Below are positions 30,001 to 51,000 of a stretch of 64,000 nucleotides of DNA, one piece after another. The stretch spans positions 992,001 to 1,056,000 of the forward strand of contig CAWHDP010000002.1 of assembly GCA_963828125.1 (NCBI GenBank), in the 5' to 3' direction. Position 1 is the first letter of the stretch. Every line of letters begins with the position of its first letter. The stretch comes from an uncultured Chlamydiae bacterium (lineage in GTDB: Bacteria; Chlamydiota; Chlamydiia; Chlamydiales; SM23-39). A program made the position numbers.

Positions 30001-33000
30001 TCCCTTTTTTCAGCCCCATTTTCCGGGCGACGAGATCGAATTTCTCTCCCTGAGCCTCGTCGAGATTCGCGCTATTTTTCCAATAGGCGCATGTATAGGC
30101 CAACGTGTTCCCCAACATCTGTTCATAAAGATCATCGCCCAGTTCGTAGTGGTCGTGGATCACCTTGGAACTTTTGACTCCCTTCTCCTGCATATTGAAA
30201 AATTTCGCCTTGAAGACACTCCAGCGCATCGCCCAAGTCGGCTTGACCCGCTCTTCAAGCTGAGCCCCGAGAATTTTAAACATGCACTCATCAAGAGCCG
30301 GAGCATCCCACCACCCCTCCATATATGCCTCGCCAAACCCAAGCGATCCATCTTTGAGAACCCGATCGTAAAACCGATCGTCGTATACCCGAATGTCTGA
30401 GGGACGATCCCCATTGATCTTGACGTCGGCGATAGCGAGGATCTCCTCGACTACTTGCTTGGAACTCGCTTCAGAGAGCTGAACGAAGCAGAAAAAAGAA
30501 AGGAAGAGGAGAGACTGGATGAGCCTGTGCATAAAAAGAGCCTGAACTGATTCCGTAGATGAAGAATAAATCATTCTTGAATTTCCTGCAAAAGGGATGA
30601 CTGGACAGAAATTTGGATTCATCCATAAGGAGAAAGTGATCCTTGTCCGATCCCGTCGTGCCCTTGCCTTTGCCCAGTTCAGGCCCCGAAGGGGACTGAA
30701 CTTTTATAATTGGAGATATGCAGCGCTCCATAATCGGTATAGCTGGGTCTCCTTGGGGTGTTTGCCATAGGCAATCGCCGCTAGGTACCCGTCTTTAATC
30801 TCTAACTCCATTAAATTTAAACGAATGGGTGCATCTTGGGCCACTGAATCAATAACCACCAGCCCCCCTCCTGAGATCGCATCAAAACTCTTTAACGGAT
30901 AACTCAATCCCCTCCCTATCGCCTTCACAATCGCTTCTTTACGAGTCCAAATCTGGTAAAATGTAGCTAATTTATGGACCGGAAGAGCTCTTTTTAAAAT
31001 AGCATATTCATTCGGAGAGAAAAATTCTGCGGCAATCGATTCAAAATTATCTATTTCCAATATTTTTTCTATATCAATCCCCACCTCTCCATCTTTGCAA
31101 ATAACACAAAGTCCGAGATCGCCTGAATGAGAAACGTTAAAGTATAAAGAACCTTGACCTTTTTTAAGCGACGGTTTGCCGTATTCATTGTAGGAAAACT
31201 CAATATCACTAGGATTCCGCACCAAATACATTCCAATAATTTTCCGCAACGCCCCCCTCATCAAAATAAAATTCTCTCGGTGGCATTTTTGGAAAAAACT
31301 ATCGGCCCGCGCCCGTTCATCCTCTGATAGGAATTTGTAGAATTCATCTGTCTGTTGACCGGAATTTACAAAATCAATCCTCCAAATATGAAGTTCTTTT
31401 TCAGAAATAGGCGTTGATATACACAAAGAACCTGAAGAATCAGAATTCTGAGGTAAAGCCGACATCGCCAAAAACCGATTCTTCAGGGTCTTTATGTATA
31501 ATTTAGGTTTTGAAAAAAATATCACAAAAGTGTTAGAGTCTACCGCAGAATTTAGAGTTTGTCGATAGACTCTTATACAGGTTTCTCTCATTTTCCGCCT
31601 GGTTGATTGATGAATGCGTCCAACTTACACTACGATTGTTTAGGTATCGGAATCGGCCCCTCGAATCTAAGCCTCGCTTGCCTGTTAGATCCCATCAAAA
31701 AGCTAAACTACTGCTTTTTAGAGCAAAAGCCCACATTCATCTGGCATGAAGGTCTTCTCCTAGAAGATGCTTCTGTACAAATATCGATTTTGAAAGATCT
31801 TGTCTCACTGGTGAATCCTAGAAGCGAATATTCTTTTCTCTCATTTTTACATGAAAAAAATAGGCTCTACCATTTTATTAACGCCGACTTTACAAGAGCT
31901 AAAAGAACTGAATTCAATCAATACTTTCAGTGGGCCTGCTCCAAACTCAAATATCTCAAATTTTCACACAAAGTCAAGGGCGTAGCATTTAACGGAGATT
32001 TTCAAATAGAGACAGAACAGGGCCTTTTCCAAGCCAAAAATATCGTTATTGGCGTTGGACAGGTTCCTCATATTCCTCCATTCGCAAAAAAGGTCAATCA
32101 TCCTACCGTTTTCCACGCTTCAGAGCTTTTAACCAAGCAATGGGCCCTGAAAGACAAACGCATCGCCGTAATCGGAGGAGGCCAGTCTGGAGCCGAAGTA
32201 TTCTCAACCATCCTCTCTTCGCCAAAAATAGAGGCTCCCTCTAAATGCTTATGGATGTCCAGAAGAAGTAATTTTTTCCCCTTGGATGAATCCCCCTTTT
32301 GCAATGAATTTTTTATGCCTATTTACAGCGAATATTTCAACAAACTTCCAGATCGAATCAAAAAGCATAAGCTAAAAGAACAAAATCTGATAAATAATGG
32401 TATTTCTCTAGATACAATTAGACATATCTACCAGGCAATCTATCAAAATGCTTTTTTAAGCAAAAAACCTATCTCCATCAAGCTTTTGGCTGGGAGAGAG
32501 GCACTCGATATCGATGCAAGAGGAAATTCTTGGAAACTGACTGCAAAACATATGGATACCGGAGAATATGAAGCCTTTGAGGCGGATATCATTGTACTAG
32601 CAACAGGCTATCGATACGAAATCCCTAATTTTTTAAGTCCTATACGGAGCCGTCTGCAAATACAGGACGAGGAGCTAGTCATCCGAGACGATTTTTCAGC
32701 TAGATGGGATGGCCCCGATCATCACCGGATTTATATACAGAATAATGCGATCGGCCAAAAAGGGATTGCCGATCCCAATTTAAGCCTCATCGCCTGGAGG
32801 AGCGCCAAAATTATCAATAGCCTCATGAATCAACAGGTGTATAAAGATCAAAATATCCAGTCTTTCATCAGCTGGGGGGGAGGATCTTCGCAAAAAAATA
32901 GCCCAGTTCCTTTCGATCTGCCCTGCAGTATAACCAGTGGGGATACAGTTGTCCTTTGACTGCGTAGTGATCGGCGCTGGAATCCTTGGAGTCACTATCG

Positions 33001-48000: not shown

Positions 48001-51000
48001 TGAGGGCTAACGCGAGCCATTCATCGACTACTTGGCTTTCTGGATAGCTGAAAATATGGCTGGCAATCAGATCTTGAATGACGACAACCCCAGAACCTGG
48101 TTTTAGTAGGGTTTGAATGGTATTTAAAACCGATCTATGATCGATTAAGTGAATAAATACAAAACGGGAAAAAACAAAATCCAACTGGTTTTCTAAATCG
48201 AGGGAATCGAGATCGTATGCAGAAACAACCTGAAAATCTATATTATCAATTCCCTCTTTAGCGGCCATTGCCTTTGCCAATCGGATCTGTTCTCCGCTAC
48301 TGTCAACTGCGATCACTCGTCCGTTTGGTTGAACCTCTTTGGCAAGCCAAACGCTCATTTGCCCAGCTCCGCAACCGAGTTCCAACACGGTCATTCCAGC
48401 CTTTAGGCCCATTTTTTTTAAAAAAGTTTGGCTGGAATCGTTCGTAAGGCTATTCAGAACATCGAGTCTCTCCTCACCTTTTTCACCGATCTCCAAAAAA
48501 TATCCCTTATCCTGCATAGCCGCTCCTTGATGGTATGAGGTCAATAACAACAAAAAGAATAAAAATTTTCTTAAGCGCATTTTCAGACTACCTGATGCCG
48601 AGGGAGACTATCACAAGTACTATTTTCTTGAAAAGAAAAGCTATTATTTGACGTTTTTCAACCTGGAAAACTTTCCCCATTTCAAAGACCAAACCCTGAA
48701 GAACGGCTGACAGATCCAACATTCAATCCGATAAAGGTGAAGGACGAAAAGCGCCCGAAAGATCCCCAGATTTTTTGCCCCACATTGCGGATGGGCTCAT
48801 ATGCCGCCACCGGCCAAGACAACCAAAATTTTTGATACTACCAAACATTATTTAATGCGAATCGAAATATAAACAATTGAAATTAACACCCAGCAATTGT
48901 ATAATCTGAGCGGATATTATGGGAACAATCACTGTAGTTTCAAAGCCAACAGAGAAGATTTTACCTACCCTGACCCCAAAACGGGGAGAAGGGACAGGTT
49001 CCCGCTCGTGTATTGTCCAATTAGTAATAAATATTTTCACACAATTAAAGCGTTTTTTCCTCTGTATTACCACAAGAGTAACCGGCTTATGCGCTAAAAA
49101 AGTAAAAGTCCTACCCGCCCCCAGTCCCAAAACCTCACCGTGTCGAGAAACGGCTCCTCTGACGCCTCCAGTCAACCGAAACATTTTACAAAGGGCCTTT
49201 TCCTCCATTAGAAGCTATCTGTTTTCTGCCGATCCTAGTCAAAAAAGCCTGGAAGATGCGATCGCTAAAGGAGATCTTGAATCATTCAGTAACGCCCCTG
49301 CTGCTTGTAACATCAATGAAAAACTCCCCAATGGAGAACTTCCCCTCCATTTCGCAGTCAGGCTTGGGAAAGAGGAAGTCGTTCGTGCATTGCTGGAAAA
49401 AGGGGCCAATCCAGCGGCTCAAGATTATCAAGCGCTCTCTGCGTTTGACCACGCTTGTTTACAAAACAATCCAGCTATTCTAGCTCTCTTAATCGGAAAT
49501 CGAAAAGATGGGCTATCCAGCGCAGTTCCGATTGATTCAAGGACACGTGGAAACGCTGCCCTTCAAACGATACGGACTCAAATGGAGCAGGCGCTTCAAG
49601 AAATAAGAGCTTGTGATAATCCTTTAGCTTCCGCCATTGCTTCGGGGGATCTGCAAACGGTAAAAAAGCTGTGGATCGACGGTTCCACTACCACTCCTTT
49701 GCCTAGCAAGACGCTTGCCCTTCTCCATCTGGCCGCCTTGAGCCCTTCGGCAGAAGTTTTTCAATTTTTGTTAGAAAAAGGGCTTGACCCCACATCGGAG
49801 GATGGATACAAGAGAACCCCGCTCCACTACGCTATCTCGAATCGAAATCCGAAAATATTTGAAACCATTTTCAAAAAAGCGACCCCCGATATGATGTTCT
49901 CTCGAGACAGAGAGAACATACGCCCTATCGATTTACTGATGGCTCGCGCCAAAGACGTCGATCCTTTAAAAATACCTGTAGGATTAGAATGCGCTTTATT
50001 TATTCCCATAGCCCAAATCATGCAGGCGTCGATATTCCCCGAACTCTCTATCTTGGAGTTAGCGCTATCTCTTTACCGAATGACTTACTTTTTCAAAGAG
50101 TTTTCTGGAGAATGGAAACCACTGGCCGCTTGGTTCGGACAGTGTTTTGTGGGGCCGCTCCCCTTCATTGGCCTTCCCTTTAGAATTTTCGAGATAGCTT
50201 GTATCACAAAGAGTTCTTTGCAAGGGTTGCGATCGAGCTGGAACAACCTTTCCTATCGTCCGAAACAAGCAGTAGTGCGGGGCCTCTTGGCTGGGTTCAC
50301 TGGTTGGGTTTTTTGGAAAGATTTCTTATCCTATTTGAAATTCACTCGCGCTTTCTATGAATACTGCCGGGATGATCTGCCTTCATCCACTTTCACACCG
50401 GAACAGTTTCCCGACGCCAAACGCCTAACCCCTGAAGAACGGCTGACAGATCCAGCATTCAATCCGGCAAAGGTGAAAGACGCCCTTTTTATGATCTGTC
50501 CCGACTGCTCTGCAAAAGACCTCTACAGCGAGGATCGCTCTTTCTATGTTAAGCCCTACCGAAAGCTCCAACAGCAGTTCCACCCGGATCGGTTCAAAGG
50601 CAACCCGGAGATCTCCCAGCGTTTGAATGTGGCCAAAGATACTCTCGATCAGTATACAGAGAGGAAGCCCTCAAGCTCAAGTGGGGATTAGCTTTTGGGA
50701 CGCAGCAACGATAAATGGCCAATGTCCAGTTCAAGGGTGAGTCATTTTCGGTCTATTCAATAAAAAGTGTTTTGACTTATGCTCCGAAAAAAGGAGATCC
50801 CTTGCACCTCATCTTCCTGCTCGCCGCCTCCCTCTCTGCTCTCTACTCGACCCTCGATCCCACCTCGGTGTCGCAACACTTCGCCTTTTACGAGCTCTAC
50901 CCAAAAACCCCTGAGGGGCGCCAGGCCCTTTTGCATGCCTGGGAGTTACTGAGCGGCGGCTGCGCCGATTGCGATCCTGAACTGATCCTCCCCTCTTTAG

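Follow-up and report, generated by a model that had tools for sequence, protein, structure and literature searches.

Does a chlamydial genome encode a pathway for a natural product with a nitrogen-nitrogen bond, and what might such a pathway make? The question is raised by a gene cluster in the window analyzed here, a stretch of 64,000 nucleotides from an uncultured Chlamydiae bacterium (GenBank assembly GCA_963828125.1, contig CAWHDP010000002.1, positions 992,001 to 1,056,000), for which a preliminary description had proposed a hydrazine synthetase pathway joined to a nonribosomal peptide synthetase (NRPS). That core proposal is upheld by matches to the azs proteins of azaserine biosynthesis and by the motifs of the hydrazine synthetase (HS). 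The small building block in question would be hydrazinoacetic acid (HAA), which is glycine bearing one additional nitrogen. We consider it probable that the locus is a horizontally acquired island with about 18 kb of pathway genes, in which an HAA cassette is joined to a conventional NRPS and from which a short hydrazino peptide is predicted. The chemistry would be of a known kind and, as far as the literature found here extends, is unreported in chlamydiae. Our search found no report of a chlamydial hydrazine synthetase, the N-N enzyme review PMC11705231 and PMC8664883 contain no mention of "Chlamydi", and a survey of chlamydial biosynthetic gene clusters (PMC9666466) contains no mention of "hydrazin".

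The genes listed previously are all present as intact ORFs with the Pfam domains and coordinates given at the time, and that list was incomplete in leaving the GNAT and carrier-protein genes unnamed. The features are as follows, in window positions.

28000..50750, no strand: whole inserted segment, 22.7 kb (tblastx against same-genus genomes)
28018..30622, minus: FAD_binding_4 oxidase and cyclopropane-fatty-acyl-phospholipid synthase, Cfa (Pfam, NCBIfam)
30704..31591, minus: PPTase, AzsU/Tri15-like (Pfam ACPS and AASDHPPT_N)
31607..32959, plus: flavin N-monooxygenase, AzsL/Tri26/Spb38-like (Pfam Lys_Orn_oxgnase)
32937..33992, plus: DAO-family FAD oxidase, AzsM/Tri27/Spb39-like (Pfam DAO)
33970..41178, minus: two-module NRPS, 2402 aa (Pfam and motif positions)
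41175..42641, minus: AMP-dependent ligase, AzsP/Tri29-like, 488 aa (Pfam AMP-binding and AMP-binding_C_3)
42761..43060, plus: putative stand-alone carrier protein, AzsQ/Tri30-like, 99 aa (ORF and conservation)
43057..43812, plus: GNAT acyltransferase, AzsS/Tri31-like (Pfam Acetyltransf_3)
43825..44895, minus: C45-family autoproteolytic hydrolase, AzsT/Tri14-like (Pfam AAT, PF03417)
44883..46898, minus: didomain HS, zinc cupin plus MetRS-like (Cupin_2 and tRNA-synt_1g)
46873..47688, minus: FkbM-family methyltransferase (Pfam Methyltransf_21)
47696..48580, minus: class-I SAM methyltransferase (Pfam Methyltransf_31/25/11)
48919..50691, plus: ankyrin-repeat protein (Pfam Ank)

The origin of the island can be approached from its composition and surroundings. 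The GC content of the cluster is 0.418 against 0.492, and the segment is missing from the homologous site in three of the four same-genus genomes fetched, where the flanks ending at 27993 and resuming at 50798 are separated by about 1.0 kb (G159), 55 bp (G312), and 0.9 kb (G300). As HS was not found in any of the seven same-genus genomes within a 400-genome sample and the right-flank gene occurs in 10/10 same-genus genomes, these observations together support acquisition. The FAD_binding_4 oxidase and Cfa pair, although inside the segment, is probably not part of the pathway, as it appears native to the genus: its GC is 0.48 to 0.51, it sits elsewhere in G300 within a 576-kb contig, and a CMAS homologue occurs in four of ten same-genus genomes, three at 72 to 74% identity and the fourth (G404) at just 29% (E 1e-39). 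For Cfa, the NCBIfam model gives 540 bits, above its cut-off (400). The ankyrin-repeat gene, also within the inserted segment, separates the cluster from the conserved right flank, and its membership in the pathway is doubtful. An ankyrin protein also borders the related cluster in locus L001, with similarity at repeat level only (34% over 85 aa).

The rarity in the phylum noted before was reproduced in our sample, which differs from the earlier one. Among the 400 scored genomes, matches to HS better than E 1e-63 occur only in the genome itself and in G379 (35% identity, query residues 32 to 640). All other listed matches begin at query residue 90 or beyond and thus span the MetRS part only, and the two matches in the genome itself are consistent with the separate housekeeping MetRS already described. 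Syntenic relatives were detected in just two MAGs, another chlamydial one and one with a Rickettsiales label. An unrelated hydrazine cassette is present in a second family of chlamydiae. The core of methyltransferase, HS, C45, GNAT, carrier protein, ligase, and C1-A1 is syntenic in loci L002 and L001/L169, the latter having an NRPS of just C-A-T-TE with the N-monooxygenase and oxidase alongside. To regard this class of compound as known almost only from actinomycetes was an overstatement, since, of the 80 best genome loci, other phyla account for 12 by record title. Restriction to one strain of the genus, foreign GC, and the lack of any exporter or regulator among the island genes (ORF and Pfam annotation) could suggest a recent, silent acquisition that is unexpressed and plays no role in the host. 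We judge this unlikely, however, as the 11 pathway ORFs and the carrier-protein gene are all full length relative to homologues, the 7.2-kb NRPS gene is free of stops, and L002 keeps the gene order at 52 to 72% protein identity, which points to selection acting on the set as a whole.

When the cassette is compared with characterized systems, all seven of its proteins match azs proteins of Streptomyces fragilis at 26 to 42% identity, and for six cluster genes the E values (1e-55 to 1e-136) lie far beyond what chance would give. The six-gene set recurs complete in 64 of 153 related loci with an HS match and in 58 of the 91 that measure at least 20 kb. Judged from sequence, the island carries what appears to be a complete cassette for making and loading HAA, as in triacsin and azaserine. 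In the pathway proposed below, the steps through desuccinylation by the C45 hydrolase follow homology to characterized enzymes, and the C1 donor step, peptide assembly, release, and methylation follow from architecture only.

The first step would be conversion of L-lysine to N6-hydroxylysine by the N-monooxygenase (Lys_Orn_oxgnase 1.7e-102), which is 41% identical to AzsL (E 9e-110) and 56% identical to a copy on the G401 contig. In HS, the MetRS-like domain would then activate glycine with ATP and esterify it to the N-OH of N6-hydroxylysine, and the zinc cupin would rearrange the ester to N6-(carboxymethylamino)lysine, making the N-N bond. HS is 39% identical to AzsN (E 1e-136). Among solved structures, the didomain is closest to PyrN's C-terminal domain (9vq4, E 3.6e-75) and next to an ordinary MetRS (1rqg, E 2.1e-46); no NCBIfam MetRS model reaches its cut-off on the didomain (the best gives 254 bits, with 587 required). 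The HLGH (residue 141) and KFSTS (residue 453) motifs and the metal site of the cupin are intact, and the cupin residues H48/H50/E54/H88 are invariant with the spacing of the zinc ligands of RHS1 (PMC8664883).

The partner amino acid had been left open-ended, and the binding pocket now suggests a narrower answer. Its code GPDQWM(A)NY, i.e., GPDQWMNY, agrees at six of eight positions with the proven glycine code of Spb40/AzsN, TPDQWMNH, the bulky W, M, and N among them, and differs from SFVQALNR (PyrN, Glu) and SADQWYGH (ThzN, Thr). In the tree, HS falls within a 112-row clade (SH-aLRT 100) that contains AzsN and in which nearly all members have the glycine code. We therefore read the pocket as glycine-like and not PyrN-like. 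Were HS to use a different small amino acid (Ala or Ser, for example), an alpha-substituted hydrazino acid would enter the peptide instead. Such a reading could draw on the two departures from the glycine code (T to G at position 1, H to Y at the last), on the confinement of this code to three syntenic loci (3/150 sequences), with no characterized HS carrying it in the literature found, and on the existence of Ser/Gly- and Ala/Gly-accepting enzymes. It seems improbable to us given that the residues occupying the side-chain space of glycine enzymes (W375, M378, and N416) are retained, that in ThzN an exchange of this Asn for Gly creates side-chain room (PMC12376268), and that the downstream ligase, GNAT, and C45 hydrolase are of HAA-handling types.

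The enzyme described earlier as an FAD oxidase is indeed one (DAO 1.6e-24), and a specific role can be added. As a protein of AzsM/Spb39 type (41% identity to AzsM, E 3e-75; 48% to the G401 copy), a type that releases HAA (PMC11705231, PMC10445470), it could cleave a C-N bond oxidatively to yield HAA and aminoadipate semialdehyde.

Loading of HAA would begin with the GNAT enzyme (Acetyltransf_3 1.7e-17), which is 42% identical to AzsS (E 8e-55) and 64% and 58% identical to the L002 and L001 copies and which may place a succinyl group on the distal nitrogen, by analogy with Tri31 (bioRxiv 10.1101/2021.05.12.443849). The ligase is 37% identical to AzsP across 445 aa (E 5e-102), with 62% and 52% identity to the L002 and L001 copies, and lies by the carrier-protein, GNAT, and C45 genes in the same arrangement as azsP. 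It is predicted to adenylate N'-succinyl-HAA and transfer it to the carrier protein, as AzsP does with succinyl-HAA (PMC10445470; for Tri29, see bioRxiv 10.1101/2021.05.12.443849). The 99-aa protein, a putative carrier protein, completes the cassette as its eighth part. Pfam PP-binding is not detected in it (and in the L001 carrier protein at E 0.012 only), and the assignment draws on a conserved serine within L-(S/T)-S-L that is invariant in a four-way alignment, on copies at the same position next to GNAT in L002 (48%, 7e-22) and L001 (62%, 3e-16), on a gene position corresponding to azsQ, on a match to AzsQ itself (23% identity, 53% positives, E 6e-5), and on an AF2 model (pLDDT 86) whose listed Foldseek matches are nearly all acyl carrier proteins, at E 5e-3 and weaker. 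The PPTase (ACPS 7e-19 plus AASDHPPT_N), whose counterparts in the azs and L001 clusters are 26% (E 1e-12) and 46% identical to it, would prime this protein and both NRPS T domains.

The supposed IAT-like acyltransferase proves to be a C45 peptidase of AzsT type (36%, E 3e-63; AAT 4e-24; C45_proenzyme 219 bits, cut-off 85), in which the Cys of G-(E/D)-C is invariant and aligns with AzsT. Two roles have been published for its homologues, a desuccinylase in azaserine (PMC10445470) and a proposed thioesterase-like hydrolase in triacsin (bioRxiv 10.1101/2021.05.12.443849). We favor removal of the succinyl group from succinyl-HAA-S-carrier, as reported for AzsT on the carrier-bound substrate (PMC10445470). 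It is conceivable but unlikely that the succinyl group is instead kept through assembly, so that an N'-succinyl-hydrazino peptide forms first and the C45 enzyme acts late in deprotection or release, or else as a thioesterase like that proposed for Tri14. Tri14 hydrolyzed acyl-S-carrier in vitro and was taken as a thioesterase, and distal-N acylation was first hypothesized as a protecting group, cf. FzmQ/KinN (bioRxiv 10.1101/2021.05.12.443849); the NRPS, however, has its own TE domain.

With the succinyl group removed, HAA-S-carrier could serve as donor for the N-terminal C domain (C1) of the NRPS, which we infer to be the entry point for the carrier-bound unit. Pfam finds two Condensation, two AMP-binding, two PP-binding, and one Thioesterase domain, and the C-A-T-C-A-T-TE order previously assigned agrees with the motif positions (HHxxxD at 141 and 1246, SGTTG at 624 and 1736, GG(D/H/N)S at 1018 and 2120, GWSxG at 2267); the protein is 52% identical to the L002 NRPS. 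C1 is far closer to elongation C domains, of which the nine best chains score 3e-52 to 4e-40, than to lipo-initiation domains, which score 8e-18 to 1e-16. The lipopeptide product proposed at first, an N-acylated (lipo)dipeptide made by a starter C domain together with a fatty-acyl-AMP ligase, its hydrazine unit coming from elsewhere or from an A domain, could appeal to the AMP-binding_C_3 tail known from fatty-acid ligases, to several fatty-acid-CoA ligase NCBIfam models matching under cut-off, and to the C domain at the NRPS start, but is very unlikely given C1's distance from the RzmA and SrfA-A starter domains, a ligase far nearer AzsP than FadD15 (28% in the preliminary description) with neighbors like those of azsP, and a top NCBIfam model that is succinyl-type (o-succinylbenzoate-CoA ligase, MenE; under its cut-off) and not FAAL.

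In the HAA-loading pathway preferred here, module 1 would add a probably hydrophobic residue and module 2 a glycine-like one, after which the TE would release an N-terminal hydrazino tripeptide. These tentative assignments come from the A-domain codes in GrsA numbering (A1 DAFLFVATIK, A2 DILQFIAIWK), read against reference codes; the A1 code matches no verifiable reference code. Both methyltransferases would tailor the product. The FkbM enzyme (Methyltransf_21 1.3e-18; over the NCBIfam fkbM_fam cut-off) is 57% identical to an L002 copy in the same position, the only match among 160 related loci, and the class-I enzyme is 72% identical to its L002 copy and 32% to a methyltransferase in L001.

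Comparison with known systems places these predictions in context. Like the azaserine cluster of S. fragilis, for which the roles of AzsL/M/N/P/Q/S/T/U are described in PMC10445470, the island has all eight HAA-making and carrier-loading functions, at 23 to 42% identity, and an NRPS that would take up the carrier-bound unit. It differs in its ordinary C domains, where the azs system is Cy-A-CP with an ester to serine, and in its two additional methyltransferases. In azaserine the KAS-like transferase AzsD shifts the HAA unit from carrier to carrier (PMC10445470). No gene for an AzsD-type transferase was found in the cluster or genome, nor a CP fused to a synthetase, and we infer that the free carrier protein might dock to C1. 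For the acyl-CoA-dehydrogenase-type oxidase AzsF and the haem-oxygenase-like AzsE, likewise, no counterpart was found in the cluster or genome, which leaves the diazo end product once considered without support; the genome yielded no hydrazone or diazo oxidase.

The six-gene logic of HAA and succinyl-HAA loading is shared with triacsin (tri26-31 with Tri14/Tri15) and s56-p1 (spb38-43). In triacsin, the ligase loads the carrier only after distal-N succinylation, Tri22 oxidizes the unit to a hydrazone, and a type II PKS extends it (bioRxiv 10.1101/2021.05.12.443849). The island, by contrast, has neither a Tri22 homologue nor a PKS, and the HAA unit should enter the peptide at the hydrazine oxidation state. 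In this respect it resembles thrazarine (thz), whose HS pathway lacks an AzsF homologue and passes an unoxidized hydrazino acid to an NRPS, although there ThzN uses threonine (SADQWYGH), the NRPS esterifies serine, and the diiron enzyme ThzE is the proposed maker of the diazo group (PMC12376268), features that do not apply to the island. HS and PyrN have in common the HLGH and KFST motifs as well as the cysteines of the zinc knuckle. PyrN binds glutamate via Arg390 and Arg425 (PDB 9L8V, 9VQ4; bioRxiv 10.1101/2025.08.22.671884), whereas HS has Ala and Tyr at these positions and a Trp/Met-filled pocket, and PyrN is a structural guide for the chlamydial enzyme rather than the functional match for which it had been taken.

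The didomain protein of this cluster is assigned here, by sequence, to the didomain hydrazine synthetases (Spb40/Tri28/AzsN/PyrN), and ATP-dependent N-N bond formation is the activity predicted for it. The window belongs to a 2.37-Mb genome in 2 contigs (95% complete). This genome falls with a phylum sample of genomes of 0.8-4.0 Mb, and the nearest relative of the cluster bears the title 'Chlamydiae bacterium', which makes a chlamydial setting credible. All ORFs of the preliminary description are present and uninterrupted, with the Pfam domains given for them; a carrier protein and a GNAT had been left unnamed there.

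Features of the island and its left flank (from ORF and Pfam evidence unless another source is given)
21768-26142, plus strand, type III secretion genes sctU, sctV, and an sctW-like gatekeeper, directly left of the variable site (NCBIfam)
30704-31591, minus strand, PPTase
31607-32959, plus strand, Lys/Orn N-monooxygenase
32937-33992, plus strand, DAO-type FAD oxidase
33970-41178, minus strand, NRPS, 2402 aa
41175-42641, minus strand, AMP-binding enzyme
42761-43060, plus strand, putative carrier protein, 99 aa (ORF)
43057-43812, plus strand, GNAT (Pfam)
43825-44895, minus strand, PF03417/C45 protein
44883-46898, minus strand, Cupin_2 + tRNA-synt_1g didomain protein, the predicted hydrazine synthetase
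46873-47688, minus strand, FkbM methyltransferase
47696-48580, minus strand, class-I methyltransferase

The best solved relative of the didomain protein is PyrN-C (9vq4, E 3.6e-75), with ordinary MetRS next (2.1e-46), and the RHS1 zinc cupin (5uqp) matches residues 8-107 (E 1e-10). The N-terminal cupin carries the zinc-ligand pattern (D/H)-x-H-x3-E ... H, as H48, H50, E54, and H88, which are invariant in 14 sequences; their spacing (+2, +4, +34) equals that of RHS1, for which PMC8664883 gives the ligands D63/H65/E69/H103. The second domain carries HLGH (residue 141) and KFSTS (residue 453), corresponding to HLGH and KFSTG of PyrN in bioRxiv 10.1101/2025.08.22.671884. This HLGH + KFST(G/S) pair sits in a MetRS-like domain other than a true MetRS, and the protein scores under the cut-off of every NCBIfam MetRS model. 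In the 400-genome phylum sample, its own genome yields a second match to the synthetase query, which fits a separate housekeeping MetRS. An N-hydroxylase, which would provide the hydroxylamine, is also clustered with it, the N-monooxygenase lying 12 kb away.

Both the enzyme family and its loading cassette are already established. In PMC10445470 and the triacsin preprint (bioRxiv 10.1101/2021.05.12.443849), AzsL/Tri26 is the N-monooxygenase, AzsM/Tri27 the FAD oxidase, and AzsN/Tri28 the hydrazine synthetase; AzsS/Tri31 is a GNAT that succinylates the distal nitrogen of hydrazinoacetic acid (HAA), AzsP/Tri29 an AMP-ligase that loads succinyl-HAA only, AzsQ/Tri30 the carrier protein, AzsT/Tri14 a C45 peptidase, and AzsU/Tri15 the PPTase. 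Homologues of the DAO-type oxidase, GNAT, AMP-ligase, and C45 hydrolase accompany the window synthetase. In BLASTP against the ORFs of the Streptomyces fragilis azs (azaserine) cluster returned by the genome scan (L069), matches were obtained for the N-monooxygenase (AzsL; 41% identity, 9e-110), oxidase (AzsM; 41%, 3e-75), synthetase (39%, 1e-136), ligase (AzsP; 37%, 5e-102), GNAT (AzsS; 42%, 8e-55), C45 protein (AzsT; 36%, 3e-63), and PPTase (26%, 1e-12). The supposed fatty-acyl-AMP ligase and IAT-like acyltransferase are consequently better described as the loading ligase and C45 hydrolase of an HAA cassette. The C45 protein passes the NCBIfam C45_proenzyme model (219 bits, cut-off 85) and keeps a Cys aligned with AzsT; in the C45 family, a Gly-Cys site provides the autoproteolytic nucleophile.

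The cassette would also include a stand-alone carrier protein between ligase and GNAT, an assignment that draws on synteny, alignment with AzsQ, and fold. Its ORF runs 4 bases into the GNAT gene, placed relative to it as azsQ is relative to azsS, and is kept in the loci of a second Chlamydiae MAG (L002; 48% identity, 7e-22) and a Rickettsiales-labelled MAG (L001/L169; 62%, 3e-16). Against AzsQ it shows 23% identity and 53% positives (E 6e-5), with the serine of L-(S/T)-S-L invariant in the alignment. Of the Foldseek rows listed for the predicted fold (pLDDT 86), nearly all are acyl carrier proteins, at weak E-values (5e-3 and worse), and the protein goes undetected in a Pfam search up to E 10. 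On the opposite strand, a 145-aa ORF (42748-43185, minus), without a Pfam hit and seemingly conserved in L002 and L001, was rejected because it merely shadows the carrier-protein gene in antisense; gene callers may choose the wrong strand here.

Substrate-pocket residues of PyrN and Spb40 were mapped onto the window synthetase by hand from an alignment and then with MAFFT over 150 synthetase sequences. Residues G132, P133, D173, Q176, W375, M378, (A381), N416, and Y420 give the code GPDQWMNY, with glycine as the substrate candidate. Reference codes, from PMC12376268 and bioRxiv 10.1101/2025.08.22.671884, are TPDQWMNH for Spb40 and AzsN (Gly), SADQWYGH for ThzN (Thr), and SFVQALNR for PyrN (Glu). 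The window code is identical to the glycine code, found in 100 of the 150 sequences, at 6 of 8 positions; GPDQWM(A)NY itself occurs in three, those of the window, L002, and L001. These three form a clade (support 100) in a quick IQ-TREE phylogeny with SH-aLRT support only, and are joined by two metagenome loci (support 95); the five rows are sister to a 107-row glycine-code clade containing AzsN, the joint 112-row clade having support 100. The likeliest, though putative, substrate of the window synthetase is glycine, leading to HAA.

For the NRPS, motif positions give the domain order C-A-T-C-A-T-TE. The preliminary description had read it as a lipopeptide synthetase, a reading that these comparisons do not support. 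C1 is elongation-like, with 5u89 as best match (3e-52) and Txo1/2, fuscachelin PCP-C, McyB, and TycC as other elongation C domains, whereas the starter domains of SrfA-A (8f7f, 8f7h) and RzmA (7c1h, 7c1k) reach 3e-19 to 1e-16. Neither a lipo-initiation C domain at the N terminus nor an FAAL-type ligase is recognizable, the ligase being of the AzsP type. The first adenylation domain looks hydrophobic in its specificity. The A2 code shares 7 of 10 letters with DILQLGLIWK, the canonical glycine code; the LgrA module 2 A domain, taken to check that code, has an atypical pocket. A Ser/Lys/Gly-rich low-complexity insertion (window 37600-37800, NRPS residues ~1130-1190) lies between T1 and the C2 core, near the start of C2, and the L002 NRPS aligns across it with gaps.

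An azaserine-type cluster is not supported either. The window lacks an acyl-CoA-dehydrogenase-type oxidase (AzsF/Tri22), the haem-oxygenase-like AzsE, and a Cy-A-CP NRPS, its own NRPS having Condensation domains instead. Across the whole genome (95% complete), there was no match to PF00441 (AzsF/Tri22 type) or PF14518 (AzsE/ThzE type), with positive controls, which leaves no indication of a hydrazone or diazo group. With the cassette apparently coupled to a conventional peptide-forming NRPS and no oxidase of this kind present, the predicted product is an N-terminal hydrazino peptide.

Further insight is gained from the two close relatives, whose taxonomic labels come from MAG binning alone. 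L002 runs methyltransferase, FkbM, synthetase, C45, GNAT, carrier protein, ligase, and NRPS to its contig end, at 52-72% identity to the window. The 23.6-kb contig L001/L169, from a Rickettsiales-titled MAG, carries, in order, an ankyrin protein, three LuxR-type genes, methyltransferase, synthetase, C45, GNAT, carrier protein, and ligase, followed by an aminotransferase IV, 2-hydroxyacid dehydrogenase, glyoxalase, PPTase, NRPS, N-monooxygenase (56%), and oxidase (48%). Its NRPS is a single C-A-T-TE module, with C1 45% and A1 43% identical to the window. The shared order points to a conserved core of cassette plus module 1, to which the chlamydial version adds a predicted glycine-like module 2 and an FkbM methyltransferase. 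Among 160 related loci, an FkbM hit was found only in L002. A synthetase hit is present in 153 of them; of these, N-monooxygenase and oxidase accompany it in 100, ligase, GNAT, and C45 in 70, and the full set of six is present in 64. The class-IV aminotransferase, D-2-hydroxyacid dehydrogenase, and glyoxalase-fold protein of L001 (12210-14637, minus strand) are absent from the chlamydial versions, and might provide module 1 with another residue. The cluster is flanked by an ankyrin-repeat protein in both the window (48919-50691, plus) and L001 (51-1589, plus); the likeness is at repeat level only (34% over 85 aa) and does not establish common descent.

The genomic setting was compared within the genus. 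Sequences matching the window up to 27993 and from 50798 lie ~1.0 kb apart in G159, ~55 bp in G312, and ~0.9 kb in G300, so that the 22.7-kb segment is missing from these genomes; in G275 (L172), only the right-flank gene matched within the 19.6 kb fetched, and it was not counted for the site. The right-flank gene is present in all 10 same-genus genomes, and a synthetase-grade match in none of the seven same-genus genomes of the phylum sample. To the left, the sctV protein is 93-95% identical in same-genus genomes, and a 606-aa ORF (18952-20772, plus) is an unusual relative that matches malate synthase A below threshold (199 bits, cut-off 594). The segment is composite: an FAD_binding_4 oxidase and a cyclopropane-fatty-acyl-phospholipid synthase (540 bits, cut-off 400) at 28018-30622 (minus) have GC 0.48-0.51, and the same pair lies elsewhere in G300, in the middle of a 576-kb contig, and is native to the genus. 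This suggests that local rearrangement accompanied insertion, and leaves the pathway borders proposed earlier, 30704-48517, about right. GC is 0.418 in the cluster versus 0.492 in the rest of the window, and 0.364 in the L002 cluster versus 0.457 in its 3.3-kb flank. No tRNA gene was found in the window, no direct repeats above chance at the two island borders, and no integrase-type gene among the ORFs scanned in and around the island. The sequencing runs listed are 5 DNA runs from 2 studies, with no RNA run among them.

A second chlamydial family carries a different cassette. G379 (L170, C4:1074000-1093900) encodes a synthetase (33-35% identity), N-monooxygenase, and oxidase in a different operon, and its synthetase falls in a different clade of the tree. 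The class-I methyltransferase of the window shows only fold-level likeness to that of G379 (25% identity, E 7e-5). The one-strand operon comprises, in order, a methyltransferase, a pre-ATP-grasp/PGM1-like ligase, a radical-SAM lysine-2,3-aminomutase-like enzyme, the Lys/Orn N-monooxygenase, DAO oxidase, and cupin/MetRS synthetase (code TPDQWM(A)NN), a Cupin_8/JmjC-like protein, a beta-lactamase-fold protein, and an ACS-like ligase. This gene set recalls the needs of a negamycin-like beta-lysyl N-methyl-hydrazinoacetate; the N-N bond would come from the synthetase route rather than the haem route.

The synthetase family is large, with 1221 proteins at E <= 1e-20 among 7663 candidates scored and a relative encoded in 461 of 599 candidate stretches of species-representative genomes. 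Judged by record titles, 12 of the 80 top-ranking loci come from non-actinomycetes (Pseudomonas, Caulobacter, Bradyrhizobium, Erwinia, two Mesorhizobium, Xenorhabdus, Serratia, Geminicoccaceae, Ca. Elarobacter, and the Chlamydiae and Rickettsiales MAGs), so the earlier statement that such chemistry is known almost only from actinomycetes was too strong. A metagenome scan with the single synthetase protein as query gave no relative, and a repeat with the synthetase alignment gave relatives only at <=42% identity; metagenome proteins P0004 and P0005 are 51% identical to the synthetase and P0006 44%.

The host-dependent lineage that carries the cluster is generally regarded as poor in secondary metabolism. 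That the sole close relatives lie in another chlamydia and a Rickettsiales-labelled MAG points to gene flow among intracellular bacteria. It could be speculated, as a possible and rather doubtful reading, that obligate intracellular bacteria living in protists or animals and belonging to two unrelated phyla (an environmental chlamydia, the second chlamydial MAG, and the Rickettsiales-labelled MAG) share by horizontal transfer a pathway dedicated to a small peptide whose N-terminal hydrazine is free. If so, hydrazino peptides would make up a natural-product class not yet described, and the bacteria would turn this reactive nucleophile on targets within the host cell, such as carbonyl or PLP cofactors belonging to the host or to rival symbionts. 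Under this reading, the rise in GC from 0.30-0.32 (L001/L169) through 0.36 (L002) to 0.42 (window) would be compatible with an origin in an endosymbiont lineage of low GC. With pathway genes spanning only ~18 kb and intact, the cluster is a realistic target for heterologous expression.

In conclusion, three features are new: the cassette is coupled to a conventional peptide-forming NRPS with no hydrazone or diazo oxidase, the synthetase has the GPDQWMNY pocket, and the hosts are of an unreported range. In the literature searched, main texts without their supplements, we found no report of such an N-terminal hydrazino peptide or of a chlamydial cluster, a negative limited by Matsuda's 401-sequence survey and by the 884- and 830-sequence mining sets, which could include chlamydial entries. 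Among the characterized pathways consulted, that of triacsin places the HAA-type unit in a polyketide, and those of azaserine and thrazarine place it in an ester-linked diazo amino acid. Thrazarine biosynthesis, in which an unoxidized hydrazino acid is handed over (PMC12376268), is the nearer precedent for the window.
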